From the IMG/VR virus record IMGVR_UViG_2919730853_000001, positions 1 through 62,284 of that record: 62,284 bases of DNA, one strand, 5' to 3'. Under the pieces are notes generated by a model. It was not told the origin of the DNA and made no database searches. It saw only the letters and a list, made by a program, of their open reading frames with translations. The translations under genes were made by a program, and so were the position numbers. This document shows, piece by piece, positions 1 to 62,284 of the stretch (positions are counted from its first letter, which is position 1; each line of letters starts with the position of its first letter). The stretch comes from a virus.

Positions 1-95
1 CCCCCATATAATACCCCCTATATAGCACCCCCTATATGTACCCCTACCTATATACCAGTAGTAGTAGTGGTAGTAGTACCCATACCAGTACACCA
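1..95. repeat. Terminal direct repeat, copy A (identical to 62190..62284)
   Basis: The first 95 nt of the window match the last 95 nt letter for letter. Confidence 0.9.
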
Positions 96-330
96 GCACC
101 AGCACACAGGCAAGGCAGTGAGGCAAGGCAGTAGACAGACAGGCAGGGCACACCATACCCACTACCCATACCCCATACCCATGCACACATACACTTCCAC
201 AACTCAAGACATGTGAAAGTGAAAGCGAAACAGCGAAACAACAACATCAATTCACTTCCAAAAGTGTCACCACAATACACCCACATATCCACCCCCATAC
301 ACCCCATATATACCTAGTGATAACGCTGGA
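1..330 (+). repeat. Non-coding C/A-rich mosaic of short tandem repeats (continues from 62100..62284)
   Basis: CCCC(C)TATAT units about every 13 nt; (AGT)n at 57-78; GGCAAGGCAGT x2 at 109-132; ATACCC-type units at 155-180; GTGAAA/GCGAAACA units at 213-246. No RBS-led ORF. Confidence 0.7.
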
Positions 331-538
331 ATAGAAACTAGAATGCAAGAAGGGGTACAACAGGGGAGGCACACCCCCTACACCCCCCGGACTGATCCCT
401 GCAAAATATTTATACAATTTTTGAAACTATTGATACCAGTTACTTCCAGTAGGGTAAGGGGTACTTACTGAAAACACTGCTGCTTAATAGTGCGGCCCTG
501 TAAAAAAATTTTTGCGAAATTTTTCTAATTCTTTTCCG

Positions 539-566
539 TGTCCTAAAAGTAGATCAGCTTGCAAGT
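539..566 (+). promoter_or_regulatory. Phage-specific bipartite promoter-like motif TGTCCT-N16-GCAAGT (copy 1)
   Basis: Exact motif and spacing, 22 nt upstream of the ATG at 588. Confidence 0.6.
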
Positions 567-587
567 CTCCACACGGAGGCGATAAAA

Positions 588-1334
588 ATGAATGAAATTA
601 TTGAAACTATCAAATACGGAATTGAACCATACGAAATTAAGAAAGAACTTAAATTTGAGTTATTGACTGAACCAACAGAGATTCCAAAGGGTTCAGGGCT
701 ATACATGATTATGTCCGGTGACAAAGTGCTTTACATTGGAGAGTCTTCAGTTTTGCGTCGAAGAGTACATGCACATATGAGAGGGTCTGACGTTACTGAA
801 AAGTTCATGGAAGAGTGGACACATATTCTAATCACTAAATCGGAAATGAATAAGAATGTACGCACTTTAGCTGAATCACTTCTTATTGAAAAGTACAGCC
901 CTAAATACAACACGTCGGACACTAAGCGTTTAATCGATAAGTACGGAAGTATGGAAGTAGTTATGGATTTAGTCTACTACTTACGTGTAGTTGGCTTAGA
1001 GTTTGCGTATGTTGCTGAAGAGTTCAATATAACAAGAAATGCCGTTGAGAACATAGCTAAGAAAGCTACTGCTAGTAATATAGAAGTTCCTATGGATTAT
1101 GTTCCTACAAAGAAACTGGATATGACAAGAACAAGGGCTATGCGGTCTACCATTACTAAGAGTCTTTTCTATACGGCTTATGATTATCTTCAAAAGGATG
1201 GAATTGTTCAAAGGGACTTAACACGCCTGTACGGAATTCCTGAAGGCACTATTAACGCTATTAAAAAAGCGTCCACAGAAAAATATAAACGTTGGTTAAA
1301 AGAAAGAGAAGAAAGCGAACTTACCACTGTCTAA
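588..1334 (+). CDS. GIY-YIG family endonuclease-like protein with two C-terminal HTH-like repeats
   Basis: 248 aa. Motifs GLYMI, VLYIGES, RRRVHAH and LIEKYSPKYN. RBS GGAGG lies 8 nt before the ATG. Repeated segments NITRNAVENIAKKA and IPEGTINAIKKA. Confidence 0.7.
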   Translation: MNEIIETIKYGIEPYEIKKELKFELLTEPTEIPKGSGLYMIMSGDKVLYIGESSVLRRRVHAHMRGSDVTEKFMEEWTHILITKSEMNKNVRTLAESLLIEKYSPKYNTSDTKRLIDKYGSMEVVMDLVYYLRVVGLEFAYVAEEFNITRNAVENIAKKATASNIEVPMDYVPTKKLDMTRTRAMRSTITKSLFYTAYDYLQKDGIVQRDLTRLYGIPEGTINAIKKASTEKYKRWLKEREESELTTV

Positions 1335-2175: not shown

Positions 2176-2184
2176 AATAAGGGG

Positions 2185-2209
2185 TAGGGCTACGTGCCCT
2201 ATCTTTTTT
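2185..2209 (+). terminator. Rho-independent terminator
   Basis: Stem TAGGGC/GCCCTA followed by a T6 run. Confidence 0.6.
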
Positions 2210-2226
2210 ATTTAGGAGGAATAGTG

Positions 2227-2535
2227 ATGGAAGAGAAAGACCAAAAGGCTAGTAAGGATTTAATGGCGTTCGGAATATTGATACTAGGTTCAGGTGTTCT
2301 AACAATACTATTGTTCCTTATCTCCACGAAAAACCATGAGTTCGCAAGTATGGCTAGATTCATGTTCGCATTAACAAGTGCGTTCGGTGTCTCATTTATG
2401 ATATATATGAAAGAGTTTCGTTCTGTCGGTAACTGGTTCGAGTTGCCTATCGCATTTCGCTTCATTTGGTGGACTATCTTTGTTGGAAATACATTTAACT
2501 TTACAGAATACGCAATAACGACGTTTATCTTATAA
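2227..2535 (+). CDS. Small integral membrane protein
   Basis: RBS TAGGAGGA precedes the ATG at 2227. The track start at 2194 lies inside the terminator. Several hydrophobic helices. Confidence 0.55.
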   Translation: MEEKDQKASKDLMAFGILILGSGVLTILLFLISTKNHEFASMARFMFALTSAFGVSFMIYMKEFRSVGNWFELPIAFRFIWWTIFVGNTFNFTEYAITTFIL

Positions 2536-2556
2536 CGAGATAAGCGTCTTTTTTTT
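2520..2556 (+). terminator. Rho-independent terminator
   Basis: 10-bp stem GACGTTTATC/GATAAGCGTC followed by a T8 run. Confidence 0.7.
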
Positions 2557-2583
2557 GTCTCAAAAAGCCCCGAAACTGCAAGT
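2556..2583 (+). promoter_or_regulatory. Bipartite motif TGTCTC-N16-GCAAGT (copy 2)
   Basis: Lies directly after the terminator T-run, upstream of the methyltransferase gene. Confidence 0.55.
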
Positions 2584-2618
2584 AACCACCTGTAGCAAAA
2601 CTACAGGGAGGTTGTTAG

Positions 2619-3758
2619 ATGTATACAGTAAATTCATTTTTCTGCGGTGGCGGTGGGTTCGATTTAGGATTCATTAACGCTGGCTTTGAAGTGGTTGGGG
2701 CTTGGGACTTCGACAAATATGCAGTACAATCCTATGCACACAATATCGACACGTTAGTTAAAGAAGCAGACGTTAGTACAATGTCATGGAGAGACTTACG
2801 ACCAGCTTCAGTATGGTTGTTCGGGTTTCCGTGTCAGGATATAAGTATAGCTGGACTGAAAGCAGGAATGATTAAAGGAGAAACTAGAAGTGGTCTTTTC
2901 TATGAAATCATGCGATTGCTGCAAGAAGTTCGAACTGCTACCCCTGGATCTCTTCCTGAAATTATACTTGCCGAAAACGTCAAGGCAGTAAAGAAGTACT
3001 TACCTACGATTGAAGAAGAGTATGCCAAGGTGGGCTACAAGATGTACTACGTTCTGTACAATTCAAAGTATCAAGGTTTAGCCCAAAACAGGGAACGTTA
3101 TTTCATCTTGGGTGTTCGAGAGGATATTAAACAAACGTTTGTTTTTGAAGAACAACAGACTGAATTTGTGCCAAAACTGAAAGACTTTCTAGAAGATCAT
3201 GCCGACGAAAAGTTTTATGTAGAGGATATTAAAGCACTTCATATCATTGAAAAAGCTGAAGAAGGGCTTCGAGTAAAACAGGCTACCAAGAAAGGTTACG
3301 ATGTTGCAGTAGAGGGCGACATGATTAATGTTACCCGTCCTAATAGTAAAACAAGACGTGGCCGCATTGGAAAACAGATAGCACAAACGCTATTAACTGG
3401 TCATGAACAGGTTGTAGTTGAATCGTTACCTACTATCAATGTTCTAGGAATGTTGGACATTAACGGTCATGACAATATTCGTCGTGTCTATGATGTTGAC
3501 GGGTTAAGCCCAACACTCAATACCGGAGGCGGTGGAAATCGCCAACCTAAAATTTTGGACTACGATAGATTAAAGGTAAGGAAATTAACACCGAGAGAAT
3601 TTGCTAGGCTTCAGGGTTTTCCAGAGTCATACCAACAAGTAGTATCTAACGTTCAATTCTATAAGCAGATGGGGAATGCCGTATCTGTTCCTGTAGCTGA
3701 ATTCGTGGCAGGGCAGATTAAACAGTACCTTGAATATTTAGAAATGTGTTCTAATTAA
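2619..3758 (+). CDS. dcm: DNA (cytosine-5)-methyltransferase
   Basis: FCGGGGFDLGF (motif I), FPCQDIS (IV), ENV (VI), QNRERYFILG (VIII), TPREFARLQGFP, GNAVSVPV (X). Confidence 0.9.
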   Translation: MYTVNSFFCGGGGFDLGFINAGFEVVGAWDFDKYAVQSYAHNIDTLVKEADVSTMSWRDLRPASVWLFGFPCQDISIAGLKAGMIKGETRSGLFYEIMRLLQEVRTATPGSLPEIILAENVKAVKKYLPTIEEEYAKVGYKMYYVLYNSKYQGLAQNRERYFILGVREDIKQTFVFEEQQTEFVPKLKDFLEDHADEKFYVEDIKALHIIEKAEEGLRVKQATKKGYDVAVEGDMINVTRPNSKTRRGRIGKQIAQTLLTGHEQVVVESLPTINVLGMLDINGHDNIRRVYDVDGLSPTLNTGGGGNRQPKILDYDRLKVRKLTPREFARLQGFPESYQQVVSNVQFYKQMGNAVSVPVAEFVAGQIKQYLEYLEMCSN

Positions 3759-3770
3759 TCAATATATAGA

Positions 3771-3802
3771 CCTCACTATTAATTTAGTGGGGTTCTTTTT
3801 TT
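3771..3802 (+). terminator. Rho-independent terminator
   Basis: Stem CCTCACTA/TAGTGGGG followed by a T-run. Confidence 0.7.
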
Positions 3803-3829
3803 GTCCCATTTCGCCTGAACTTCGCAAGT
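3802..3829 (+). promoter_or_regulatory. Bipartite motif TGTCCC-N16-GCAAGT (copy 3)
   Basis: Exact spacing, abutting the terminator. Confidence 0.55.
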
Positions 3830-3854
3830 GTACACAAGAAGGGAGGGCGTTAGG

Positions 3855-4364
3855 ATGATAGGTCATAGACGCATTAAGGTATGGGAAGATAATGGAGACG
3901 TGAAGGAAACAGAGGTGTACTTGCCAAACATTCGAGATATTGTAGGGTTCTTGAATGGGACGTGGGATTTAAAAATGTACGATGATTGTTTCGACGGTAA
4001 GAATAAGATGGGTGATGTAGATGCATCTATAGAACTGTTCGGTCATACGCTGCTACTTGAATTCAAACGAGATAGAACAGCTTTGACTGCTGGACAGATA
4101 GTTAAAGCAATTCGCCAAGCTAGACATAGCAACATTACAACCATCTTTGTTTTTGGCGACACGAATAGACCTCATGAGTATTTGAGATTTTCGCCTAACT
4201 GCTTGGACGGTACTGGATTCATTAAGACTGACATTATAGGACTAAGTAAGGTATTGAGATCATGGCACAATTACGCCAAGAAAAACGCCCTTACTAAAAA
4301 GAGTGACCCCGATTGGAAAACAGCGAAGAGATATTTAGCTAGTGTTGGAGGCGGTAAGAAATGA
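3855..4364 (+). CDS. Hypothetical protein with a possible PD-(D/E)xK nuclease-like core
   Basis: RBS GGGAGGG precedes the ATG at 3855. GDVDASIELFGHTLLLEFKRD matches a D..ExK pattern. The product assignment is weak. Confidence 0.5.
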   Translation: MIGHRRIKVWEDNGDVKETEVYLPNIRDIVGFLNGTWDLKMYDDCFDGKNKMGDVDASIELFGHTLLLEFKRDRTALTAGQIVKAIRQARHSNITTIFVFGDTNRPHEYLRFSPNCLDGTGFIKTDIIGLSKVLRSWHNYAKKNALTKKSDPDWKTAKRYLASVGGGKK

Positions 4365-4704: not shown

Positions 4705-4735
4705 GCGTGGGGCTAGTCCTCACGTCTTTTTTTTT
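4704..4735 (+). terminator. Rho-independent terminator
   Basis: 9-bp stem GGCGTGGGG/CCTCACGTC followed by a T9 run. Confidence 0.7.
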
Positions 4736-4820
4736 ATGCCCGAAAACCTGTATTTGGGCGGTGTTTCTTACACCTTTTAGTAGGACGTTGCATCGGCAAC
4801 AAATTACAGGAGGTGGCACG

Positions 4821-5509
4821 GTGAACCTGAAAGGAAAAGTAAAGGGAAAGTCTTATGAAGAGTGGATTAATCGCCTTCAGGAGATTGACAACTTTCTCGA
4901 TAGAGTAAAAGAAAAAGCACAGCAAGGCAAAGAAATGTCAAGAGAAGTACTAGAACGTGCTGTAATGCTAAAGAAGGAACGGGAACAGTGCGAACGTATC
5001 ACTAGATGTTGGGGCAGTACATTAGAGTACATGTATGAATATTTTTCGCATGACAAGAATCCTGAAAATGAAAATAATTTAATTCCCGAAGGCATAGGCA
5101 TTGAGGACGCACCAGCCTTTCATAGAGAGTTAACGGACTATTTGGATAGCTACCATTCAGACCCTACACAACGCATCGCATGGAGTGTCCCACGAAGCCA
5201 TGCGAAGTCCACATACCTTTCGAATATGTACCCACTGTACAATATTGTCTATAACTTACGGTCATTCATAGTCATAGTGTCTGAAACACAAGACGGTGCT
5301 AAACTGTTCGCTGACTACGTTAACAATCAACTAAAGCACAATGCAAAACTACGTGAAGATTTTGGCGAATTAATGGACGAAACTGGACGGGGAAACATTA
5401 AGGATAATGCAGAGAAGTTTGTAACAAAGAACAATATAATGGTAGCCATTGGTTCAACGCAGAAACAATTGCGAGGCATGAAGTTCCTCAACGCGAGACC
5501 TGACTTGAT
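4821..5509 (+). CDS. terL: Terminase large subunit, exon 1 (ATPase N-terminal part with Walker A)
   Basis: GTG at 4821 follows RBS AGGAGG. Walker A PRSHAKST is at 5190-5213. The frame ends ..RPDLI, then W and a stop, unless it is spliced. Confidence 0.75.
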
Positions 5510-5773
5510 TTGGTAAAACTGGTCACTTTTAGTAGAAATACTAATCGAACATCGGGCAATATCGGTAAACGCTGAAACGCCAATACCGAGATAAGGTAGA
5601 GGAGTAAAGACCTCTACCCATCGTAACGCATAGGTGGTGAAACTGCTTGCAGAATATAACCCACCCAAGAGTGTCCGACACCTAAACGTAAAGTCGTAGG
5701 TGAAAATGTATGCTGAACTATGACGAATACAAGTCATAGAAGTAAGGATAAAAAGCCTTGCGATAACATATTG
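5510..5773 (+). ncRNA. Group I-like self-splicing intron (ORF-less) within terL
   Basis: Removing it restores RPDLIILDDLES (Walker B). It starts after a U, ends in G, and contains multiple hairpins. Confidence 0.6.
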
Positions 5774-6806
5774 CATTTTAGATGATCTCGAATCGGAGAA
5801 GAACACAAACACGCCTGAACTAAGACAGAAGAACCTAACATGGTACACCAAAGTAATTAACCCACTTGGAGACCCACAACGTACCGGTTTCATTTACATG
5901 GGTACATTGGTGAACCCTAATGGACTGCTGCCATATGTAATGCAACGTGCTGATTTCAAAGCGAAAAGATATTCGGCTATCGTTTCCCCACCTGACAACG
6001 TTGAAATGTGGGAAGAGTATGAAAGAATTTATCGTGACGTTGAAGACCCTGACCGTAAAGATAATGCGGAACATTACTACTTTATGAATCAAGAAGAAAT
6101 GGATAAGGGCACGGAAGTATTATGGCAAGACAGAATGCCTTACTACAAACTCATTCAAGAGAAATGTAACGTTGGTACAAGGGCATTCAACAGTGAGTAC
6201 TTGAATCTACCATACAGTGACGAAGACGCTATTTTCAGACAAGAGTACTTCACATTCTATGACGACAAAGACCTGTACGATGATTCAGGGCGAATGATAC
6301 CATTGGAATATTATGGATTTTGGGATGTTGCCATTACAGGTAAGGGAGACTACAACGCTATCATTACACTTGGTAGAGACCGACGCACTGGCATCTTTTA
6401 CGTTGTAGATGCATGGGCGGCAAAGGTCAATGCACATGAGGCACTTAAAATGGCAGAGAATAAAATACTTGAATACAATCATCACACATTTGGAGTTGAA
6501 ACTATTCAGGCACAATGGTCTATGTTTCAACAGTTAAAAGTTAACCTCTCTAAACGTTCGTATTTCAGAACTAGGTTGAAAGCAGTTAACCCACGTACAA
6601 AGAAAGAGATTCGTATTGAGGCACTTGAACCACTTGTAGAAGCAGGACAGATACGTTTTAAACGACAACATAGGTTATTGCTGGAAATGTTGGAATTATT
6701 TCCACAACATGAACACGATGATCTACCCGATGCATTGGCATCTTGTGTAGACATGGCTGGCACACACCGCAAAAGAATGTTTCAAAATAAACCGAAAGGC
6801 TGGTAG
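5774..6806 (+). CDS. terL: Terminase large subunit, exon 2 (Walker B and nuclease domain)
   Basis: The frame is open from 5775 (ILDDLESEKN...) and is the same frame as the 5898..6806 ORF. The C-terminal part is typical of a terminase nuclease domain. Confidence 0.75.
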
Positions 6807-6845: not shown

Positions 6846-8396
6846 ATGAATTTGCAAGACCTTTTCGTTAAAGGTGAATATTTCCCTTTGACTGACCATG
6901 AAATGCGTATTCAGAAATACCGACGTAATGAAAAGCTTGCTAGAGGAGATCATGAAGAAGTTTTCCCTGAATCGGCAGAAAAGAACGAAGCGTATCTTTC
7001 AGCCAATTTTTCGGGTTTAATTGTTCGCAAGTCGAGTGATTTTCTTTTTGGTGAAGTACCTACTATTTCAAGTGGTAAAGAATCACAATCACCGGAACAA
7101 AAAGCATTAGACCGTTTCACTGAAGAAAACAAGATGCATCGCCTTAACTATCAGCAAGCACTTATTGCTGCTACAAATGGAGACGCTTTCTACAAGGTAC
7201 GTTACGGTCAAGAGTATAATGGACTGTTCCCTGAAACGGCTGACCCTAAAAGACTTATCATCGAAGCGATTGACCCTAAAAAGGTGTACCCTCAAACGTC
7301 ACCATTCGATAAGTCAAAGATTGTTGTGTATCACGTTGCTGAACCTATCCTTATTGAAGGCACAAGCGATAAGTGGTTACTACATGTTGAATCACACTAT
7401 GCTGGTAAGATTGTTTACCGTCAATTCAAATTAGATATTTTCCGTACTGATAAATTCGGAAACATTCTATTATTCAAAATCGGTGACGAGTTACCGGAAG
7501 GTTACGACGAAGAAGTAACAGGAGTTCCACTTCCATTAGTGGTTCACGTTCCGAACTACAATGACGGTATCGATTGGCACGGGCAAGATGATATTTCAGA
7601 ACACATTAAATTGTTCGATGAAATCAATAACCGTATTTCACAGATAAGTGCAATACTGGACAAACATGCAGACCCTAGCATTGCAGTCCCTTCAGGTCTA
7701 TTACAAGTAGATGGTGATGGAAACACGTACTTCAATGTTGCTGCTAACAAAGTCTTTGAGGTTATGGGTAAAGAGGATATTATTCCTCAGTATATCACTA
7801 ATTCAAATCCACAACTTGCCGAAGCATTCAAGGAGTTAGAAATGCTTATTGAGTTCTTACTATCTACTACTGAAATTCCTCCTGTTGCAGTTGGACTTAA
7901 AGACAGTGGTACAAGTGGAAACTCAGGTCTTTCAATCAAATGGAGAATGAACAGCTTAATTGCAAAAATCAATCGTAAGCGTCAATTCTTTGATGAAGGC
8001 TTAAAGAAAGTGTACCTAATTGCACAGATGCTAGAAGCATATGCAAATCCTAGTATTGTTGACTATGAAGTTACAGTACCACAAATCGGATTCAAAGAAG
8101 GTCTTCCACAGGATGATGATAGCACTGCGTCTCGTATGGCTGTTTTAACGAATGGGAGTCAATTACTATCTCAGAAAACAGCTATCATGCAAGCCTTTGG
8201 TCTTACTGAAGAACAAGCTGAAGCTGAAATGGAACGCATTAAAGAAGAGAGAGAAGCAGCAATGGTTGCTGACCCTTCTGTATTTAATGAAGCTGGTCTT
8301 CCAGAGGATGCACCACAGAACCATGTAGATAACAAACAGAAACAAGAAGAAAAGCCTGGACAAAAAGAGGACAAGAAGAAGGAGGAAGATAAGTAA
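6846..8396 (+). CDS. Portal protein
   Basis: 516 aa, directly after terL. SPP1-type portal size and position, with an acidic/basic C-terminal tail. Confidence 0.8.
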   Translation: MNLQDLFVKGEYFPLTDHEMRIQKYRRNEKLARGDHEEVFPESAEKNEAYLSANFSGLIVRKSSDFLFGEVPTISSGKESQSPEQKALDRFTEENKMHRLNYQQALIAATNGDAFYKVRYGQEYNGLFPETADPKRLIIEAIDPKKVYPQTSPFDKSKIVVYHVAEPILIEGTSDKWLLHVESHYAGKIVYRQFKLDIFRTDKFGNILLFKIGDELPEGYDEEVTGVPLPLVVHVPNYNDGIDWHGQDDISEHIKLFDEINNRISQISAILDKHADPSIAVPSGLLQVDGDGNTYFNVAANKVFEVMGKEDIIPQYITNSNPQLAEAFKELEMLIEFLLSTTEIPPVAVGLKDSGTSGNSGLSIKWRMNSLIAKINRKRQFFDEGLKKVYLIAQMLEAYANPSIVDYEVTVPQIGFKEGLPQDDDSTASRMAVLTNGSQLLSQKTAIMQAFGLTEEQAEAEMERIKEEREAAMVADPSVFNEAGLPEDAPQNHVDNKQKQEEKPGQKEDKKKEEDK

Positions 8397-8758
8397 TGGC
8401 ACTAACTGAATTACAGAAAAAATGTGCAATGATTATGGTTGAACACCCTGAAATTACTCAGCAAGCTTTAGCTGACACTTTAGAAGTTCATCGTAATACT
8501 ATCGGTAACTGGAATAGAAGTAAGGAATTCATTTCATATAAAAATGAACTTGCTATGACAGTACATGAAAGCTTCCTTGCTGACACACTGAAATTACTTC
8601 GAATGAAAACGTTAGACCCTAATAGTCGTGGTCATTCACGCTATATGGAAATGGCACTTAAAACTTATGGTGTTATGACGGACAAATCGGAACAAACGGT
8701 TACTGTTAAGGAAGAGAAATCGGAAGAAGATTTACTGAAAGAATTATTAGCTGACTAA
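8396..8758 (+). CDS. HTH DNA-binding protein, terminase small-subunit-like
   Basis: N-terminal LTELQKKCAMIMVEHPEITQQALADTLEVHRNTIGNW resembles the TerS-type HTH. ATG overlaps the portal stop. Confidence 0.4.
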   Translation: MALTELQKKCAMIMVEHPEITQQALADTLEVHRNTIGNWNRSKEFISYKNELAMTVHESFLADTLKLLRMKTLDPNSRGHSRYMEMALKTYGVMTDKSEQTVTVKEEKSEEDLLKELLAD

Positions 8759-29938: not shown

Positions 29939-30871
29939 ATGACAACTCAAACACAAGAAATTCAAGTACAAGCAGGATTTAGTATCAACTTTACAATGGT
30001 GCAAAATGAAGTGATGGACAGTATGGCTTTCGAGAAGCCTATTGACAAATTAGCTTATTACCACTTATTACGTTTTGCATTCGGTAAAGGATATGCGTTT
30101 CCTTCAGTGCCAAAACTAGCTTTAATGTGTTCAGTAACCTCACTAACTACTATGCGTTCATCACTGAAACGATTACAGAATATGGGACTGCTGACTATTG
30201 AACCACAGGAAAACGAAGACGGTTCTTCAGCACCTAACCTCTACACTATCTTTGAATTAACTACGGCTATGAAAGAGAATAGTGTATCAAATAAAGATTT
30301 ATTTAGTGAAGCGAAGAAAATTTTCAAGAAGGATAAAAAGAAGAAGGGGGGTCAAAAATTAGCCCCTACCGAAAACGATGAAAAGGAGGGTACAAAAAAT
30401 GACCCCCCTACCCCACAAAATTTGACGGGTGAGGGTACAAAAAATGACCCCAAAGAAAAAGAACTTAATAATATTAATCTTAATAATACTAAATCTCTCT
30501 TAGAACAACATGCGAGTGAGAGAGTTTTCAAATACATGCAAGACAAGTCTGAAGACCTTCAGGCTAATAAGGTAGATATGATTATTCTATGTGATTGGAT
30601 TATTAAAAATACCTCTATGTCTGACGATAATGTTATACATATTATTAATCAGCTTAAAGACTGTGTAGGTGGAGTAACTAATACTGGTGGACTAATTAAA
30701 TATCATGTAGAAAAACTATCTAGTGGACGCAAAGAAATGAATCCTGAATGGCTAGGAAAAGAAGGGGAAGTACTGCCTAAAGTAGAAACAGTAACAGGTG
30801 AAGTATTAACTGATGAAATGAAGGCTATTCTTAAAGCTGAACTGGATGAACTCTCAGGAGGTAAAAACTAA
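29939..30871 (+). CDS. Winged-helix replication initiator/organizer-like protein (paralog A)
   Basis: N-terminus NFTMVQNEVMDS..LAYYHLLRFA..FPSVPKLALMCSVTSLTTMRSSLKRLQNMGLL. Contains an internal EGTKNDP repeat. Confidence 0.5.
   Translation: MTTQTQEIQVQAGFSINFTMVQNEVMDSMAFEKPIDKLAYYHLLRFAFGKGYAFPSVPKLALMCSVTSLTTMRSSLKRLQNMGLLTIEPQENEDGSSAPNLYTIFELTTAMKENSVSNKDLFSEAKKIFKKDKKKKGGQKLAPTENDEKEGTKNDPPTPQNLTGEGTKNDPKEKELNNINLNNTKSLLEQHASERVFKYMQDKSEDLQANKVDMIILCDWIIKNTSMSDDNVIHIINQLKDCVGGVTNTGGLIKYHVEKLSSGRKEMNPEWLGKEGEVLPKVETVTGEVLTDEMKAILKAELDELSGGKN
30346..30451 (+). repeat. Iteron-like repeats inside the initiator gene (GAGGGTACAAAAAATGACCCC x2, 45 nt apart, plus a degenerate copy)
   Basis: Perfect 21-mers at 30386-30406 and 30431-30451. 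A related copy, GGGGGGTCAAAAATTAGCCCC, starts at 30346. Confidence 0.6.
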
Positions 30872-31128
30872 TGGAATTACTAGACCGTTATGTAAGACAA
30901 GCTAGAATATTGGAAAGCGTGGAGAGAAGACATTTACAAAGCAATTCCCCTACAGAGGTAAGGGTAGTTATGGCTGACTTCTTTTCATACTTCAAAGACA
31001 TAGATAAAATGAGTGAATCAGAATTAGATTCGTTTATTTTTAATGAGATTGTAGCCCTATGTGATGCAGAGATTAAGACCTCACTAGATGCTTATACGTT
31101 TTATCAAAAGGAATATAATCTTGAATAA
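30871..31128 (+). CDS. Hypothetical protein (85 aa)
   Basis: ORF whose start overlaps the upstream stop. Confidence 0.5.
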   Translation: MELLDRYVRQARILESVERRHLQSNSPTEVRVVMADFFSYFKDIDKMSESELDSFIFNEIVALCDAEIKTSLDAYTFYQKEYNLE

Positions 31129-31271
31129 AAACTAAAAATTTTGATCAAAATATAAATAAGCAAGCTGTCTATACACTTTCAGAGGTGTTAGCATATAGCA
31201 GTGGAAGGGCATTCCTGAAAATGGGATGTCCTTTTTTGCGTTCAATTTATTTTTATTAATCACAAATTTAA

Positions 31272-31299
31272 TGTCCCGAACGCTTAGTCGTTTGCAAGT
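31272..31299 (+). promoter_or_regulatory. Bipartite motif TGTCCC-N16-GCAAGT (copy 4)
   Basis: Exact motif upstream of 31326. Confidence 0.55.
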
Positions 31300-31325
31300 G
31301 TACCCATGTAACCACTAAAGAAAGG

Positions 31326-32198
31326 GTGTTAAATTTGGACAATATATTTTCAGTATCACATAACAAAGAAGTTGATTTAGGAAACGGAGAAGTTACTAGC
31401 AACGTCTTTGTACGAGTTTATACAAGCATGTTCACTACGGGCTTAGTCGCTAACATGGGGGCGAATAACTTCACTACTCTAATGGCACTTGCATCTTTCA
31501 TGGATGAACAGGGCGAATGTTATCCTACTCAACAACAACTAGCAGAACGAATTGGCGTTCATAAAAATACGATTAACAAATACGTGAATGAGTTACTTGA
31601 CTTTAGAGTTAATGACCAACCTATTGTCACTAGACAGAAAATCAATAAGGGACAAGGTAAGATTTTTAGTTTCTACAAAATCCATCCTTTAAGTCAACTA
31701 GCGAAGTTTCAAGGTTCAATATCACAAATTGAAAGTCCTTCATCTAGTGATTCGTTAATCACAAGTAAAGGCACAAACGCTAGTGCTGTAATAATACCTA
31801 AAAATAAGCAAGTAAATAATAATCAAGATAATAAGCTAACAGCAAATGACTTACTATCTGTTTTCCTAGACACATATAGAGAAGTATACAACGTTAACTA
31901 CGTGGTAGATAACTACCCTAAAACAATGACTATCTTACGTAGCAAGGTATTAAAACCTCATCCTACACTAGCATTACAAATAGTTGAAACTGCTGTTAGA
32001 GAATATGATAAACGATTCAAGAACGGGAATTTCCCACGTCCTAGCATTGGTATGTTTTCTTGGGCTGTAAATCAAATCGTACCTATCCTAGAGGAACAGC
32101 AAAAAATTAATGACCAGGCATCACAATCGGATGATTTAGAAAAAGAAGCAGCACAAAAGATGGCTGATAAGTTAGCGAAGCTTGGAGGCGGTATGTAA
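31326..32198 (+). CDS. Winged-helix replication initiator/organizer-like protein (paralog B)
   Basis: FTTLMALASFMDEQGECYPTQQQLAERIGVHKNTINKYVNELLDF. The start is uncertain (GTG 31326 or TTG 31335). Confidence 0.5.
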   Translation: MLNLDNIFSVSHNKEVDLGNGEVTSNVFVRVYTSMFTTGLVANMGANNFTTLMALASFMDEQGECYPTQQQLAERIGVHKNTINKYVNELLDFRVNDQPIVTRQKINKGQGKIFSFYKIHPLSQLAKFQGSISQIESPSSSDSLITSKGTNASAVIIPKNKQVNNNQDNKLTANDLLSVFLDTYREVYNVNYVVDNYPKTMTILRSKVLKPHPTLALQIVETAVREYDKRFKNGNFPRPSIGMFSWAVNQIVPILEEQQKINDQASQSDDLEKEAAQKMADKLAKLGGGM

Positions 32199-45633: not shown

Positions 45634-45671
45634 AAAGAAACCCCCAAGCTTAAATGCCTGGGGGATTTTTT
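45632..45671. terminator. Bidirectional terminator between convergent genes
   Basis: Stem CCCCCA/TGGGGG flanked by an A-run and a T-run. Confidence 0.7.
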
Positions 45672-46086
45672 ATTGTTCTTTTTTAGTTTTTCTAGCTTCT
45701 CTTTCTTTCTCCAATATTGCCTTATTCTTTTCCATTCTTCTTTCCATATCTTGCGTCATTCCTAGCGATTCTTGTAAATGTCTTTCTGTCTTAAATTTAC
45801 GTCTAGTTTCCTCTTCCATTGTAAATCCATAGAGTTGTCTAATATCTGTAATTTTTAAAGCAGATGCAATAGCAGTTATATGTCCAACATTAATAGTCGA
45901 TTTTTTATGATTCATTATGAATGAAAGCGTAGATGTTCTTATTCCGGTAAGTAGGCTTAGTTCATCTAGTTTCAATCCTCTTTCCTCTAACAATTCAGCT
46001 AGTCTACATTCTAATCCAAAATCAGGATATTCCTGTAAAACATCACGTGTAGCACCATTAGTTTGTCCATTCAAAGTATGTGTCAT
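45670..46086 (-). CDS. XRE-family HTH transcriptional regulator (repressor-like)
   Basis: LAELLEERGLKLDELSLLTGIRTSTLSFIMN HTH. Lys/Glu-rich C-terminus. One of only three - strand genes. Confidence 0.75.
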   Translation of the reverse strand: MTHTLNGQTNGATRDVLQEYPDFGLECRLAELLEERGLKLDELSLLTGIRTSTLSFIMNHKKSTINVGHITAIASALKITDIRQLYGFTMEEETRRKFKTERHLQESLGMTQDMERRMEKNKAILEKEREARKTKKEQ

Positions 46087-46783: not shown

Positions 46784-47110
46784 ATGAACAAATATGAAAA
46801 CGCTTACAAATTAGAAACCGAGGCTGGTGTATCAGCTTTTTTAAATGATTATCACAAGATTGCAGAGGCACGATTTTATGCGAATGATTTAGCAATATCT
46901 GATATGCTGCTAGATTTTGAATTCGCAATGAGAAAGTGTCTAACAGAGAGACAAAGAGAGGTAGTGAAGCTTCGCTTCTTCAATGATCTACGACAGGTAG
47001 ACGTTGCCGATTTACTTAAATTGAATCAGCAAACTATTCAGGAACACATTCAGAAAGCAGTAAAAAACCTTGCATCTTATCACATGATTTTAAAGGCAAG
47101 AGGTGAGTAA
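46784..47110 (+). CDS. Sigma-70 region-4-type transcription regulator (ECF/RinA/ArpU-like)
   Basis: LTERQREVVKLRFFNDLRQVDVADLLKLNQQTIQEHIQKAVKNL. Confidence 0.6.
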   Translation: MNKYENAYKLETEAGVSAFLNDYHKIAEARFYANDLAISDMLLDFEFAMRKCLTERQREVVKLRFFNDLRQVDVADLLKLNQQTIQEHIQKAVKNLASYHMILKARGE

Positions 47111-49876: not shown

Positions 49877-49915
49877 AAAAAGGACACGGCATTTAGCCAT
49901 GTCCTCTTTTTTTTT
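49877..49915. terminator. Bidirectional terminator between convergent genes
   Basis: Stem AGGACA-GGC/GCC-TGTCCT with an A-run upstream and a T9 run downstream. Confidence 0.7.
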
Positions 49916-51065
49916 ATTTACCTTCTACACGATTCTTTAATGAATTATAAACCGCAGAAATTCCAGCTTCTCCACCATTAAAGGCAAGAATACCATTAAT
50001 TTCACTTAAACGTCCACCGAAATTATACCAGTGTTTTGAATCCATTTCCCACTCTTCACTCTTAATTGCTGCCATTATATCTTTGTCGTCAATCTTGTTT
50101 AATTTAGCCCAATGAATGAACTTTGCAACACCTTTTAAAGCATAGTTTTTCTCTAACAAATACTTACCTTTGATGTGTAGATCGGTAGGAAGATTTTTAA
50201 AAACCATATCTAAAGTATTATCTACAATGGTTTTATAAAGTCCATAATTCTTAGAGTTTAGGAAATCAATATCTTTCTTATATTCTGACCAAAACAGTCT
50301 TTTAATAAATTCATAGACAGTAGTTAAAAGTATAAAGTTAGAGTTATTTCTTTGAATACTCATTTTATCCATCTCTACGCCATATCGTTTTAAATACATA
50401 TTTTGTTCTGTAAGTTCACGTGATAATTTTGCAATATAATCAGTCTGTGCAAGTCTGATAGTTGCTGAACGGCTTGGACGTTGGGCTTTTGCATTTGTAT
50501 CATAGAATAGTTGACTTTCTTCAATCTCATTTAATCCAGCAAATATAGTTAAAGGTATAACCATTTCTTCTAATTCTCTAATATAATCATTAATTTGTTG
50601 TCTAGTCGCCTGGTCTTTTGCTTTGTTACTTCTACCCTCTAATTCTCTTAAAGCTTCACACACGCCAAAGTGTCTATGTTGTCCATCATTTAATGAGAGT
50701 TTACTATTTTGAGTATCTATAGCTAATTGTTTTGAAGATTCATCATAGAATACATTACCTCTAGCTGTAGCTGTAACTGAAGGGAAAAAACGCATTGTAG
50801 ATTTATCTGTAACACCTGAAATAGTATAAGTTTTAATTTTAGAAACTTTTCTAGCTACTGTATTTCTTTGAACATTTGGGAAAACATCTAAAAAGGTTCT
50901 TAAATCTTTAAACTTAATTAAAGTTGTAAATATATCATTCCCGAACTGCTTGCCTTTTATACCACTAAGCGTGGCATATTGCTGAACCTTCATATCATGG
51001 TCACGTTTCGCTTTCAGCATTGCCTCTACTTCTTGCATTGGTTCGTTATAAAGTTGTTTTGCCAT
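49914..51065 (-). CDS. DGQHR-domain protein (DndB-like, ParB/Srx fold)
   Basis: LSLNDGQHRHFG and QLFYDTNAKAQRPS motifs. The start is probably ATG 51065 (RBS AAGGTAGG); the track ORF extends to TTG 51110. Confidence 0.75.
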   Translation of the reverse strand: MAKQLYNEPMQEVEAMLKAKRDHDMKVQQYATLSGIKGKQFGNDIFTTLIKFKDLRTFLDVFPNVQRNTVARKVSKIKTYTISGVTDKSTMRFFPSVTATARGNVFYDESSKQLAIDTQNSKLSLNDGQHRHFGVCEALRELEGRSNKAKDQATRQQINDYIRELEEMVIPLTIFAGLNEIEESQLFYDTNAKAQRPSRSATIRLAQTDYIAKLSRELTEQNMYLKRYGVEMDKMSIQRNNSNFILLTTVYEFIKRLFWSEYKKDIDFLNSKNYGLYKTIVDNTLDMVFKNLPTDLHIKGKYLLEKNYALKGVAKFIHWAKLNKIDDKDIMAAIKSEEWEMDSKHWYNFGGRLSEINGILAFNGGEAGISAVYNSLKNRVEGK

Positions 51066-51478
51066 TTGAATACCTACCTTTTCCATTAATTTAATTTGCT
51101 TACTAGTCAATTATACCCTATAAAGATGTTCTTATCTGTGTTAATTTATGTCAAATTTCGACACGAAAAAACCCCCATGCACTAGGCACAGGGGCTTTCT
51201 CTGTAAGGATGATACTTTCCGGTATCATTATCAAATTAAATTAACTTTCAAGGCGTAATGCATCTACCCAAAGGATTAGACCATTACTTTTTAGTTAAAA
51301 AAAAAACTAACTTTCAAGGTAAGTACAGTATAGCATTGTAATGTACTCGAAGTAAAGGAAAAATATTCACTGGAATTAACTTTCTTATTACAAACAGATT
51401 AAGTTGAATAAAAAAGATTGTACTACACAGAGTAGTTATTATATTATGTACTTATACGTGTAGGGAGAGTGAGAAATA

Positions 51479-51918: not shown

Positions 51919-51976
51919 TTGTAAATGTAAGGCAAAGATCATTGAAAATTAAATAACTTTAAAGGTGGAATTATTC

Positions 51977-52774
51977 ATGGAAATCATTTGTGTATCAAAC
52001 AACAAAGGCGGAATTCTTAAAACTACCACAGCTACAAACCTTGCTGGTGTATTGGCTAAACAAGGTAAGAAAGTTCTTATCATTGACGCTGATAATCAAA
52101 GCAATGTTCTCCTAACTTTTGACCTGAACCCCGACGAAATATCTGAAGGTATGTTCGAAGTCCTCACAGGTCAGTGTGACGTTAACGATGCCATCATTAA
52201 CGTATACGACAATATTGACGTAATTCCTTCTACGGACAATATGACGGGTTTTGAGTTCCGAATTCTTAGAAATAGAGAAGCTTATCCCGATGATAAAATC
52301 TTTGATATTATGAAAGATACCTTCGCAAATCTTGAAGAGAAATATGACTATGTTTTTATTGATACACCGCCATCTTTAGGGCTAATTGTAGGGAATGCTT
52401 TTAACTACGCTGATAAAGTTTTAATCCCATACGTACCGGAGAAATACGCACAACGTTCATTAACAAAGGTTATCGAAGAGATTAAAGAATTCGCTTTTGA
52501 TTCTAACCCTAAACTTGAAATTATGGGCGTAGTTGCTACATTAACTAGAATGCATACAAAGGTGCATAGACGTGTAATGTTAGAAACACAAGAATGGTGT
52601 AAAGTAATGAAGATACCATTATTTGACACGCAAATCCCTATGACTATCTCCTATGCTGATGCAGTGGACGATAAGCATTTACCAGCAGTATTAGACGAAA
52701 CTACTACTTCAGGTATTCATTATGAAATGTTATGGGAGGAAATTTGTAACTATGAGTATGAAACGAAACGCTAA
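51977..52774 (+). CDS. parA: ParA/Soj-family partition ATPase
   Basis: Deviant Walker A SNNKGGILKTT. IIDADNQ. RBS AAAGGTGGAA precedes the ATG at 51977. Confidence 0.85.
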   Translation: MEIICVSNNKGGILKTTTATNLAGVLAKQGKKVLIIDADNQSNVLLTFDLNPDEISEGMFEVLTGQCDVNDAIINVYDNIDVIPSTDNMTGFEFRILRNREAYPDDKIFDIMKDTFANLEEKYDYVFIDTPPSLGLIVGNAFNYADKVLIPYVPEKYAQRSLTKVIEEIKEFAFDSNPKLEIMGVVATLTRMHTKVHRRVMLETQEWCKVMKIPLFDTQIPMTISYADAVDDKHLPAVLDETTTSGIHYEMLWEEICNYEYETKR

Positions 52775-54886: not shown

Positions 54887-55717
54887 ATGACAACAACTGA
54901 AGGCACTATTTATGGATATGCACGTGTATCGACTCAACAACAAGATTTAACTTTACAAATTGAGTCACTTTTGAAAGCAGGAATTGAACATAAAAATATC
55001 TATACTGATAAGCAAACAGGGAAGAATATGGATAGAGAAAGTTTAAATGAATTACTTAAAAAGGTTCGACCAGGCGACATTATTTTAGTTAAAAAATTAG
55101 ACCGTCTTGGACGTTCCGTATCACAAGTAATTGCTTTACTTGAAAAATTATATGAACGAGATATTTATGTAAAATCTATAGATGATGGCGTGGACACGTC
55201 AAACAATTCTCCAATGGCACAAGCTATGGTTCACCTATTAGCCATGTTTGCTGAGATGGAGAGACGTTTTATAAAAGAGAGAACAGAACCGGCTATTGCA
55301 AGGGCACGTGCTGAAGGTAGACAATTTGGGCGTACTGAATCAAATAAAGGTTTATATGAACGTGCATTAGAGGAATTTTTAAGCCCTGAAAATAAGAAAA
55401 CTTTTAAAACGATTCAAGAGGAATACGGGAAAGATGATAATGGTAAATGGTTTCTAAGTCAAACAACCTTCTTTAGACGTGTCGCTGAACGTCGTGCGGT
55501 GGAAGCTTATTTAGAAGGTAAATTTCCAAGCGAGATAGAAGCAGTAGAAGATACTAAGGAAAATCAAAGAGAAGTTTATGATGCTGAGTCAGGGAAAAGT
55601 ATATGGGTGGATAACCAAGAATTAGGTGACTTCCGTTTATTCTTAAAAAACGAATACATGGGGTTAACGCCTAAACGTTTTCACCGTGTTCTGAAAGAGT
55701 TTAAAAAGAATAAGTAA
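54887..55717 (+). CDS. Small serine recombinase (resolvase/invertase family) with a C-terminal extension
   Basis: IYGYARVSTQQQDLTLQ and VKKLDRLGRS motifs. At 276 aa it is too short for a large serine integrase. Confidence 0.8.
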   Translation: MTTTEGTIYGYARVSTQQQDLTLQIESLLKAGIEHKNIYTDKQTGKNMDRESLNELLKKVRPGDIILVKKLDRLGRSVSQVIALLEKLYERDIYVKSIDDGVDTSNNSPMAQAMVHLLAMFAEMERRFIKERTEPAIARARAEGRQFGRTESNKGLYERALEEFLSPENKKTFKTIQEEYGKDDNGKWFLSQTTFFRRVAERRAVEAYLEGKFPSEIEAVEDTKENQREVYDAESGKSIWVDNQELGDFRLFLKNEYMGLTPKRFHRVLKEFKKNK

Positions 55718-58195: not shown

Positions 58196-58255
58196 AATAA
58201 GTGTCGGTAAGGCGACAACAAATTAAATTAAATTAACTAAAAGGTGGAAATTAAA

Positions 58256-58741
58256 ATGACAAACGTATTAGAACTAAACTACTTAAATCTTGGAAATATG
58301 GACTTCGCAACATTAACTCTTCCGGCTTCAAATGAAGAAATCAATGAGTTCTTTGAAAAGCTTAATCCAATGGACACAGACGTTGAATTACAATGGGTTG
58401 AATCAGATTTTGAATCTAACTTGAATAACCTTTCATTATCACAATTAAAAATCATTGCAGACCTAGATAATGCTGAAGACTTTGATGCAGTATTCTCAGC
58501 GTGTGACGTGTTCAGTGAAGCAATTGAACATCTTGAAAATGGTACATATACAATCTTTGAAAATGTTGAAAATGATTATGACCTTGGGTGGGAACTTGCA
58601 GAACGAAACAACATTGTAGACCCTAACGACGATAGCATTTTAGCTAGATACTTCGACTATGAAAAGTATGGTCAAGATTGTCGCTTTGAAGGTGGTTTTC
58701 ACTGGATTAACTTTAACACAGTGGTAGAACTTCACAGATAA
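58256..58741 (+). CDS. ardA: ArdA-like anti-restriction protein (acidic DNA mimic)
   Basis: Highly acidic, 161 aa. The C-terminal YFDYEKYGQDCRFEGGFHWI resembles the ArdA motif Y.DY..YGRD....G.F. Confidence 0.55.
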   Translation: MTNVLELNYLNLGNMDFATLTLPASNEEINEFFEKLNPMDTDVELQWVESDFESNLNNLSLSQLKIIADLDNAEDFDAVFSACDVFSEAIEHLENGTYTIFENVENDYDLGWELAERNNIVDPNDDSILARYFDYEKYGQDCRFEGGFHWINFNTVVELHR

Positions 58742-60922: not shown

Positions 60923-61253
60923 GTGTTCTCCAATAGTACATGCGTATGTGATTATAGTTTTGACGCTTCAGAATGCCTCAAATCACACGTGTATGTGTCT
61001 TTGAATACCAAAGTATAGGCACAAGGTAAAAGACCTTTAAAAAGGGACTATAAGCGTCTCACGTATATAGAGGGTGTTAATCACATAATTTGTTACTTTG
61101 CTGAACCCTTGGGAGAGTAAGGACGAAAAATTTGTGCATATTTTAGCCTGTAAAATGTATTAGTCCCATGTACTAGTAATAGAGAAAGAATAACGGTGAA
61201 TCTAACTAAACTAATACTTATCTATCTGTGTACTACACTATAAACAAATGGAC

Positions 61254-61283
61254 TTGCTAGACATTGCTATATTTTGCTATACT
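61254..61283 (+). promoter_or_regulatory. Sigma-A-like promoter TTGCTA-N18-(TGn)TATACT
   Basis: Read directly. Lies upstream of 61326. Confidence 0.5.
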
Positions 61284-61325
61284 CTACTAGAAATCAAATT
61301 AATTAATTTAAGAGGTGGTTAGAGT

Positions 61326-61544
61326 ATGGCACAAGCCAATTATACTAACATTAGTGTTAGGTTATCAGAAGAGGAAACAAAAGCATTAGAAGCAGTACAC
61401 CGTTATGAAAATAGAGGTATGGGAAAGGTATCTAAAGCACAAGTTATTAGATATTCATTCCTAGAGTACATCAAACAAAATCCTGCTTATAAAGACCTTA
61501 TAAAAGGGATTAACTTGGACGTAGTAGCAGAAGAGGAAGAATAA
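61326..61544 (+). CDS. Ribbon-helix-helix (CopG/Arc-like) small DNA-binding protein
   Basis: TNISVRLSEEETKALEAVHRYE fits a strand-helix pattern. Acidic C-terminus. RBS AGAGGTGG. Confidence 0.5.
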   Translation: MAQANYTNISVRLSEEETKALEAVHRYENRGMGKVSKAQVIRYSFLEYIKQNPAYKDLIKGINLDVVAEEEE

Positions 61545-61562
61545 TAGAATAGAGTTATACAT

Positions 61563-61598
61563 AGTGCCTTATCCGTTATTGGATAGGGTACTTTTTTT
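61563..61598 (+). terminator. Rho-independent terminator
   Basis: Stem AGTGCCTTATCC/GGATAGGGTACT followed by a T7 run. Confidence 0.7.
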
Positions 61599-62099
61599 AT
61601 GTACTTTTTTACTGATCTTTTATCGATGAAATGAAAACTTGACAGGAATCAAAATCTGTGTATATAGGTAGCAGCAAACACATATTTGACAAGATTAAGA
61701 AAGTGTGATATGAAGAGGGATTTTTTATGTACATTTGACAGAATGGAAAAAGTGTGCTTACACCTTGCAGCAATTACATTAATTAGGAGAAAAAGAGGTA
61801 ACTTGACAAAGGGATTTTTTTATGTATAGAGGTCTGATTTTAAGGAACTTGACAAGCTAGTTTTTTTATGTATTCAAGGTGAAAAAACAGTGATTTGACA
61901 AGATGGTTTTTTTATGTATTAGGTCAGAAAAAAGGGGTGTTTGACAAGTCACTTTTTTTATGGTATGCACAAGTGAATTTTTTTAAACAGTTATATAGAA
62001 GAAACTAGGAAAAAGGACTTTTTTTAATTAGGTTTTTTTGTGCAAATATCGCTTCCTTGCCTTTTTTACAGACCGCCTCCAAGAACTTTTTTTATGCAC
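61592..62099 (+). repeat. Array of promoter-like units: seven TTGACA boxes and about nine T7-ATG(T/C)A boxes
   Basis: TTGACA at 61639, 61686, 61735, 61803, 61849, 61895 and 61941. The last four units have a 46-nt period with invariant TTGACA-N6-TTTTTTT-ATG. Confidence 0.75.
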
Positions 62100-62284
62100 A
62101 ATTACAGGGCTTTAAATAACCCACCTATGCAATACCCCTCCCTATATAGAACGCCCCTATATGACCCCATATAACGCCCCTATGCAGTACCCCCATATAA
62201 TACCCCCTATATAGCACCCCCTATATGTACCCCTACCTATATACCAGTAGTAGTAGTGGTAGTAGTACCCATACCAGTACACCA
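62100..62284 (+). repeat. CCCC(C)TATAT-type 13-nt periodic repeats (C/A-rich region, left part)
   Basis: At least eight units between 62134 and 62245. Continues into 1..330. Confidence 0.7.
62190..62284. repeat. Terminal direct repeat, copy B (identical to 1..95)
   Basis: Direct comparison. Confidence 0.9.

Follow-up and report, generated by a model that had tools for sequence, protein, structure and literature searches.

A tandem array of putative sigma-A promoter units with incomplete -10 boxes beside the non-coding junction of a Bacillaceae phage-plasmid

Background

Phages are well known to have host-type promoters in stacks of two or three, such as A1, A2 and A3 of phage T7 and A2b and A2c of phi29, which are two to three fully consensus-like tandem promoters located about 100-125 bp apart and driving early genes directly. 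Phage T7 also has a promoter, phiOR, by the pause site of its concatemer junction, and transcription across this junction has been implicated in DNA maturation. In Bacillus subtilis promoters, the consensus of the -16 element is TRTG (PMC6570832, citing Voskuil & Chambliss 2002). Here we describe seven units, each consisting of a perfect TTGACA hexamer followed at a fixed distance by TRTG, which are stacked on one strand of a 62,284-nt stretch of viral DNA (IMG/VR record IMGVR_UViG_2919730853_000001, positions 1 to 62,284; "the window" refers to this whole stretch). A 7-12-fold stack of this kind, with perfect -35 and -16 elements yet always an incomplete -10 box, is unusual. On the evidence of sequence comparison, we consider it probable that the array arose by tandem amplification, within one lineage, of a sigma-A-type RNA polymerase recognition (promoter) module.

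Location and composition of the array

Perfect TTGACA hexamers were found on the + strand at positions 61639, 61686, 61735, 61803, 61849, 61895 and 61941, which confirms the seven same-strand boxes reported in an earlier description made from the DNA letters only (the sequence-only reading); 0.06 copies are expected in the 308 bp of the array (61639-61946, Poisson P about 5e-13). Over the whole window the hexamer is under-represented, with 33 copies on both strands versus 50 +/- 7 in shuffled sequences, and 12 copies on the + strand outside the array. The units are spaced by 47, 49, 68, 46, 46 and 46 bp. The last four units had been described as almost exact 46-nt repeats, and while they are exactly 46 bp apart, pairwise identity among the 46-nt units is 60-77% over 43 nt, and exact only in the motif columns. 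Similarly, the proposed coupling of TTGACA to a run of seven T residues and ATG (T7-ATG box) applies to units 4-7, whereas units 1-3 have A-rich spacers ending in TGTG, and TTGACA-N12-TRTG is the pattern common to all seven units. Further T7 boxes do follow the last unit, as was also noted (61978, 62019, 62033 and 62087), with T7 runs reaching 62093. The region 61590-62100 holds 9 of the 29 genomic + strand runs of seven or more T residues and 7 of the 11 T6ATG sequences, with none on its - strand.

The array lies inside a 1,235-bp non-coding stretch which ends at a gene for a GIY-YIG nuclease-like protein (588-1334), is located directly 3' of the terminator of the early region, and has the same orientation as almost every gene in the genome. 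It points rightward to what the sequence-only reading called the genome junction. This junction is where a circular assembly was closed and not a mapped DNA end or demonstrated terminal repeat, because bases 1..95 of the circularly assembled contig are identical to 62190..62284 (95-bp overlap), and a second, permuted contig of 62,219 bp from the same sequencing run reads straight through the closure point. As stated in the sequence-only reading, no open reading frame (ORF) explains the region, with the small ORFs in the array being conserved in neither frame nor length in relatives, and a consensus scan gave no - strand promoters in the array or junction. Scans of viral, metagenome and genome collections with the exact unit pattern showed, among the matches listed, single chance-level matches only and no other array. 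Comparison of the region by blastn found nothing in phage records, and in plasmids found the conserved core described below only, in two Bacillus plasmids.

Conservation within the units

We aligned on TTGACA the 20 units of three genomes, namely the window, its closest relative (L374, portal protein 96% identical) and a Priestia aryabhattai locus (L364, portal protein 83% identical), with the relatives reached via the portal protein. TTGACA is present in all 20 units and is always followed by two purines, and T-R-T-G at alignment positions +18 to +21 is conserved in 20, 19, 20 and 19 of the 20 units, respectively. A TAT sequence follows TRTG in 18/20 units, directly in 12 and one base later in six. 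A residues are over-represented at -13 to -8, on the 5' side of the -35 box, with a further A at -2. Spacer positions +8 to +11 are essentially random and +12 to +16 are all A or all T, with the T7 tract being one of these two spacer variants; the A tract is found in 3/7 units of the window and in most units of L364. The TRTG sequence starts 12 nt after the -35 hexamer and the distance from the -35 box to TG is exactly 14 nt, which is the geometry of a promoter with a 17-bp spacer, and TRTG is the -16 element of Gram-positive promoters.

As expected of sigma-A promoters, the -35 box is close to TTGACA (perfect in 20/20) and TRTG is at its proper place. Orthologous units of the window and L364 have retained the -35 box, TRTG, TAT and the following 15 nt, with 7/12 spacer bases differing; in contrast, the protein encoded next to the array is only about 30% identical between the two genomes. 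Since the units have diverged to 60-77% identity, yet all keep TTGACA and TRTG amid random columns, each copy is under purifying selection. The conserved positions of the 20 units are those of sigma-A promoter elements in canonical geometry with a free spacer, and the conservation pattern is promoter-like rather than iteron- or operator-like, which supports in form the promoter reading first made from the hexamers.

Copy number of the unit in related genomes

While the window has seven units, its closest relative has one, at the corresponding place, and the small, possibly ribbon-helix-helix (RHH)-like protein encoded before the array is 75% identical in this relative. The L364 locus has a small RHH-like gene, a terminator, 12 TTGACA units and then the same downstream blocks as the window. 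Units were absent from the P. megaterium (L366), B. subtilis and B. cereus contigs, the closed B. licheniformis and B. altitudinis plasmids, and two IMG/VR contigs with the conserved core, and the downstream junction is shared by all unit-less relatives examined. The first and last units are orthologous between genomes, and the middle of the array differs in number. Because copy numbers differ between relatives, the end units are orthologous and the distant members are without units, the array appears to be a young, clade-restricted amplification of one ancestral unit. The single copy in the closest relative would fit a promoter, rather than an iteron or centromere array.

The incomplete -10 box

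Several observations weigh against assignment of the units as sigma-A promoters. The -10 box departs from what is required of a sigma-A promoter, as A(-11) and T(-7) occur together in none of the 20 units in any 16-18-bp register, and the sixth base of the 18 TAT-anchored hexamers is never T (always A or G), versus T in 29% of TATNNN sequences genome-wide. The partial -10 boxes noticed initially are thus real and systematic. A random site has a 25% chance of combining A(-11) and T(-7), giving P about 0.003 for 0/20, and after allowing for orthologous pairs there are roughly 11 independent units and P about 0.02. The support for -10 avoidance is weakened because the units share ancestry, and the systematic lack of a complete -10 box is suggestive. 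The consensus promoter scan calls none of the units, and the L364 junction (2150-3960) has 12 perfect TTGACA hexamers, yet only one canonical sigma-70-like promoter, versus 7.4 +/- 2.7 in shuffled sequences. In 12/20 units the base that usually separates TG from TAT is missing, and the other early promoters of the phage are ordinary, for example TTGACT-17-TAAAAT, or TTGCTA-18-TATACT with TG. There are also about 600 nt of non-coding DNA between the last unit and the next gene, in which the C-rich, G-poor tract could stop transcription, and the more distant members of the family do without TTGACA units altogether. A possible reason for the off-consensus -10 box is that a perfect one may be selected against, since no activity was detectable from a B. 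subtilis promoter in which the -35, -10 and TRTG elements were all consensus (PMC6570832).

Proposed function and alternative explanations

From the anatomy of the units, their conservation pattern and their variation in copy number we infer that the units bind polymerase and fire, and what the transcript may be for, as follows. As a promoter module, each unit would offer the host RNA polymerase holoenzyme four correctly placed contacts: an A-rich tract resembling an UP element, ~8-13 nt 5' of the -35 box, the consensus TTGACA, the 17-bp-spacer geometry, and TRTG with the TAT half of the -10 box, the second half being off-consensus in every unit. The units would have been multiplied by unequal recombination, and since they directly follow the terminator and share the orientation of the genes, they may load polymerase (or at least dock it) rightward, starting just past the early terminator and heading into the non-coding junction that is conserved in the family. 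Transcription would then cross the TGCACAA core, the CCCCTATATA repeats and the C/A-rich tract, and possibly continue into the accessory and packaging genes. An increase from one to seven to 12 copies would raise the chance of polymerase capture, and as neighbouring units at 46-bp spacing cannot be occupied at once, the array would act as an antenna rather than as seven independent promoters. In a promoter whose -35 box and TRTG are already perfect, the incomplete -10 box most likely prevents binding so tight that polymerase cannot escape, or alternatively may make DNA melting the regulated step. The transcript may allow for expression of the accessory, methylase and packaging genes, which are preceded by no other canonical promoter. 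Alternatively, its role may be in the crossing of a cis-acting site, such as a packaging/terminal-repeat region or a DnaA-box-containing element, or the product may be a C-rich non-coding RNA ending in the C/A-rich, G-poor tract.

The lack of a complete -10 box in all 20 units could also be explained if the units were docking sites, to which sigma-A holoenzyme binds via the -35 box, TRTG and UP-like tract without firing, as the missing T at -7 blocks melting. An array of this kind could serve behind the early terminator as a roadblock or insulator, could provide the junction with a local reservoir of polymerase, or could be a sigma-A sink on the multicopy replicating genome. It would be consistent with the shortage of canonical promoter calls among the 12 TTGACA hexamers of L364, with a 46-bp spacing that is below the footprint of polymerase, and with the location immediately 3' of a terminator. 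We consider docking without firing unlikely, since the closest relative has one unit and most family members have none, which would make a sink or roadblock dispensable, and since most units retain TAT with A at -11, a sign that melting is wanted; in addition there is no citable precedent, and the statistics suffer from the shared ancestry of the units. There is likewise only a small chance that the array represents selected 'half promoters', high-affinity docking sites for sigma-A holoenzyme that are deliberately unable to melt and that hold or block polymerase at the junction. These would insulate the packaging/replication junction from early read-through or titrate sigma-A, with the copy number tuned by unequal recombination. 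A neutral origin, in which replication slippage or unequal recombination generated an array without function beyond the ancestral unit, would account for the sharp differences in copy number among close relatives (1, 7 and 12), the other short repeats that fill the surrounding junction, and the lack of units in distant relatives. It is nevertheless very improbable, as it does not explain the retention of TTGACA and TRTG in every unit despite 60-77% identity, which indicates purifying selection per copy, nor the conservation of the first and last units between genomes in which the flanking gene product is about 30% identical.

A phage DNA-binding protein may instead recognise the units, which would then be iterons, operators, a centromere or a packaging recognition site, with their promoter look coincidental or secondary. 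Direct repeats on one strand beside a conserved cis-acting region have this appearance, as does the near-palindrome CTTG-N-CAAG within TTGACAAG, and the 3 + 4 grouping of the hexamers recalls the pac site of phage P1. However, conservation is in two short blocks 12 nt apart and not in a whole 17-22-bp repeat, the spacing ranges from 31 to 68 bp, the copy number is 0, 1, 7 or 12, and the placement of TRTG at the exact sigma-A distance would be left as an unexplained coincidence. The candidate binders are a sigma-region-4 protein (46784-47110), the adjacent RHH-like protein, a partner of ParA, and the small terminase. The first is a 108-aa phage protein with the fold of sigma-70 region 4, a domain that reads -35-type hexamers, but it is 69% conserved in array-less plasmids. 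The link with the RHH-like gene suggested by the sequence-only reading was not supported, and the array is unlikely to be an operator set of its product, as L366 has the gene without an array and L374 has it with one unit. A partition centromere is unlikely, as ParA (51965-52774) has its own adjacent repeats (51237-51390), 9 kb from the array, and the copy number of the array is 0-1 in relatives. Origin iterons are unlikely since there is no full-length 17-22-bp repeat, with the positions between TTGACARR and TRTG-TAT carrying 0.07-0.7 bits, the initiator-like genes are at 29939-32198 with repeats of their own rather than beside the array, and relatives within the family lack the array. The homologue of the small terminase, TerS, is located after the portal gene. 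Taken together, it is doubtful that the array consists of such binding sites. The idea of phased T-tract iterons that bend DNA was not supported, as the spacings equal 4.38 (46 bp), 4.48, 4.67 and 6.48 helical turns, the T tract is often swapped for an A tract (3/7 units), and the copy number varies from 0 to 12. Readings as sporulation-sigma, SPO1 gp28-type, ComK-box or Spo0A-box sites were dropped by eye, as spacings or core bases do not fit (TGTCAAA versus the 0A box TGNCGAA; AGGAGA-N24-T7 versus N17-18).

If the units fire, the array would constitute a natural experiment on the extent to which a consensus -35 box plus TRTG can stand in for the -10 box in Bacillota, and on the evolution of promoter dosage through tandem amplification. 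Should they instead only dock polymerase, they would represent a new kind of cis-acting element. The array also marks the left edge of a 1.2-kb non-coding junction conserved in the family, and provides landmarks for this junction, which may function as a packaging site, an origin or a non-coding RNA.

The individual units and the preceding gene

The last gene of the rightward early region (61326..61544, + strand) encodes a 72-aa protein that is possibly of the RHH type. This label is plausible, and comes from a match to Pfam DUF6290 that is below the cut-off (E = 0.005); a PDB profile search with the protein found nothing, and the structure model made from the single sequence, with two helices, was of too low confidence to be usable (pLDDT 51). 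Homologues are encoded at the same position in L374 (75% identity) and in L364 and L366 (both about 30%). The gene is followed by an intrinsic terminator (61563..61598, + strand) with a 13-pair hairpin (61563-61592) and then TTTTTTTATGT, the T7 tail of which is the first T7ATG box. The placement of the array just after a gene and terminator, as originally described, was therefore correct, with the RHH identity of the gene being the part that depends on a sub-threshold match. In relatives the sequence of the hairpin differs and the T7ATG tail is unchanged.

All units are on the + strand. Unit 1 (61626..61667), the ancestral one, has TTGACA at 61639-61644, TGTG at 61657-61660 and TATATA at 61661-61666. 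Its orthologs are the only unit of L374 and the first unit of L364, with TG-TAT(A/G)TAGGT(A/T)GCAGCA kept and the 12-nt spacer differing. Unit 2 (61673..61714), the ortholog of L364 unit 2, has TTGACA at 61686 and TGTG at 61704-61707, followed by A-TATGAA, and in unit 3 (61722..61763), with TTGACA at 61735 and TGTG at 61753-61756, the TAT is replaced by CTTACA. The remaining units all combine TTGACA with T7 and TATG. The -10-like sequence is TATAGA in unit 4 (61790..61831, TTGACA at 61803), which has an A5 tract upstream, TATTCA in unit 5 (61836..61877, TTGACA at 61849) and TATTAG in unit 6 (61882..61923, TTGACA at 61895), which has an A6 tract upstream. Unit 7 (61928..61969, TTGACA at 61941) has TATG-G-TATGCA and is identical to the last unit of L364; in this unit the -10-like sequence overlaps with the first of the conserved ATGCACAA boxes of the core.

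The conserved non-coding junction

Beyond the array lies a family-wide non-coding core (61960..62101), which contains ATGCACAA (61965, + strand), TTATATAGAAGAAAC (61991-62005), an inverted copy TTGTGCA (62038), CGCTT..TGCC and T7-ATGCACAA (62087-62101). The core has invariant columns in an alignment of eight genomes and is conserved even where portal protein identity is only about 70%. RNAalifold detected no covariation in the core, only an invariant inverted repeat, and Rfam at the gathering threshold found no RNA gene other than a tRNA. The sequence TTATGCACA (62092-62100) is one of two perfect matches to the DnaA-box consensus (TTATNCACA) in the window, and six matches with at most one mismatch are clustered in 61133-62100.

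The core is followed by seven or eight CCCCTATATA-type direct repeats with a 13-14-bp period (62140-62243), and by the start of a C/A-rich, T-poor tract (62133..62284 for repeats and tract start, + strand). The remaining part of the junction (96..587, + strand) consists of the C/A-rich tract up to about position 400, GGGGAGGCAC (363-372), TTTTTGAAAC (418-427) and AAATTTTTGCG (506-516), and then a ribosome binding site. The tract of about 400 nt is strand-asymmetric (A.34, C.34, G.15, T.17) and contains other short repeats (AGT x7, AGGCAAGGCAGTG x2 and CCATACC). The repeats and the C/A-rich composition are found at the same place in all relatives, with the sequence itself poorly conserved, and the tract could be a terminase/terminal-repeat region, a Rho-loading tract or a C-rich RNA. 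The first gene downstream of the array, that of the GIY-YIG nuclease-like protein (588..1334, + strand; Pfam GIY-YIG 1.9e-6, above the cut-off), is separated from it without any canonical promoter in the consensus scan.

The invariant TTTTTGAAAC and AAATTTTTGCG blocks are located 60-170 nt upstream of the first post-junction gene in every relative, whichever gene this is, and represent a candidate family-wide promoter, possibly for the phage sigma-region-4 protein. This 108-aa protein (46784-47110) consists of a short N-terminal part and sigma-70 region 4 (Pfam 5e-9; PHROG 'sigma factor' 6e-18), and may be a late-gene regulator or one half of a split sigma factor. Since it is 69% conserved in array-less Bacillus plasmids, it more plausibly serves a family-wide site, such as TTTTTGAAAC at 418-427.

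A terminal repeat of 378 bp was mapped in Paenibacillus phage Tripp (PMC4706335). The TerS-like helix-turn-helix (HTH) protein of the window (8396-8758) is a homologue of the annotated small terminase of Tripp (E = 4e-6), the gene of which is located at the right genome end beside the 378-bp repeat. A likeness between the junction and this terminal repeat was rejected, as blastn showed nothing significant and the TerS homologue here is located after the portal gene, so the position of the virion ends cannot be transferred from Tripp.

The phage-plasmid family

Nearly all genes of the 62-kb window are on the + strand. The packaging and structural set comprises a large terminase in two ORFs, an SPP1-type portal protein and the TerS-like HTH protein after it, followed by structural genes. 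The ORFs of the split large terminase (4707-5516 and 5898-6806) are separated by an ORF of 188 aa on the opposite strand that belongs to no known family, and as the terminase of relatives is one uninterrupted ORF of 573-601 aa, the split may represent an intron, another intervening element or a frameshift. The replication module (29.9-41 kb) encodes two initiator-like proteins, a DnaC-like loader, a DnaB-like helicase, a primase and a Pol I-type polymerase. The two initiator-like genes contain 15-bp tandem repeats (30464-30492 and 31799-31834), which are candidate replication origins away from the array; origins of the lambda-O type usually lie inside initiator genes. Lysogeny and plasmid-maintenance genes include a leftward CI-like repressor (45670-46086, - strand), ParA (51965-52774), which is preceded by a small gene and TAACTTTCAAGG repeats (51237 and 51298), and a small serine recombinase of the resolvase/invertase type (54887-55717), and no integrase was found in the gene content of the window. 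There is also a sizeable anti-restriction and DNA-modification kit, consisting of a C5 cytosine methylase (2619-3758), a DndB-like protein (49914-51110) and ArdA (58244-58741).

Homologues of the portal protein with 68-96% identity were found on whole 57-63-kb contigs from P. aryabhattai, P. megaterium, B. subtilis, B. licheniformis, B. cereus and Neobacillus; two of these relatives are closed circular plasmids in complete genomes (NZ_CP154900.1 and NZ_CP101507.1), and the nearest isolated phages are only 44-52% identical. By these comparisons the window belongs to an uncharacterised Bacillaceae phage-plasmid family of ~57-63 kb. Searches with the RHH-like protein, a 351-aa protein and the GIY-YIG protein as queries found no related loci in IMG/VR.

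Comparison with known systems

The array resembles iterons and centromeres (parS, parC and parH) in being a set of same-strand direct repeats within the non-coding DNA of a plasmid-like prophage, with a DnaA-box-like sequence nearby (62092-62100). It differs from these in that conservation is in two short blocks, with variable spacing and copy number, and in that it is not located by the initiator or par genes and is absent from most relatives that share them. With phiOR of T7 it would have in common a promoter that reads into a terminal-repeat or junction region rather than a gene, but T7 uses its own polymerase and a single promoter, and the array has no sequence similarity to phiOR and a junction without a mapped terminal repeat. 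The likeness to T7 A1-A3 and phi29 A2b/A2c is that of a tandem set of strong-looking host-type promoters on one strand, in a non-coding stretch beside a region thought to hold the genome ends; in contrast to these, there are 7-12 units, 46 bp apart, with a defective -10 box and about 600 nt of non-coding DNA after them, and the ends of the window are an assembly overlap. The closest resemblance in the elements themselves is to the sigma-A TRTGn promoters of B. subtilis (PMC6570832), which share TTGACA, the 14 nt to TG, TRTG, the A/T-rich spacer and the upstream A tract, whereas in the array the -10 box is TATNNR without T at -7, TG abuts TAT in 12/20 units, and the units are stacked 7-12 times at intervals of 31-68 bp.

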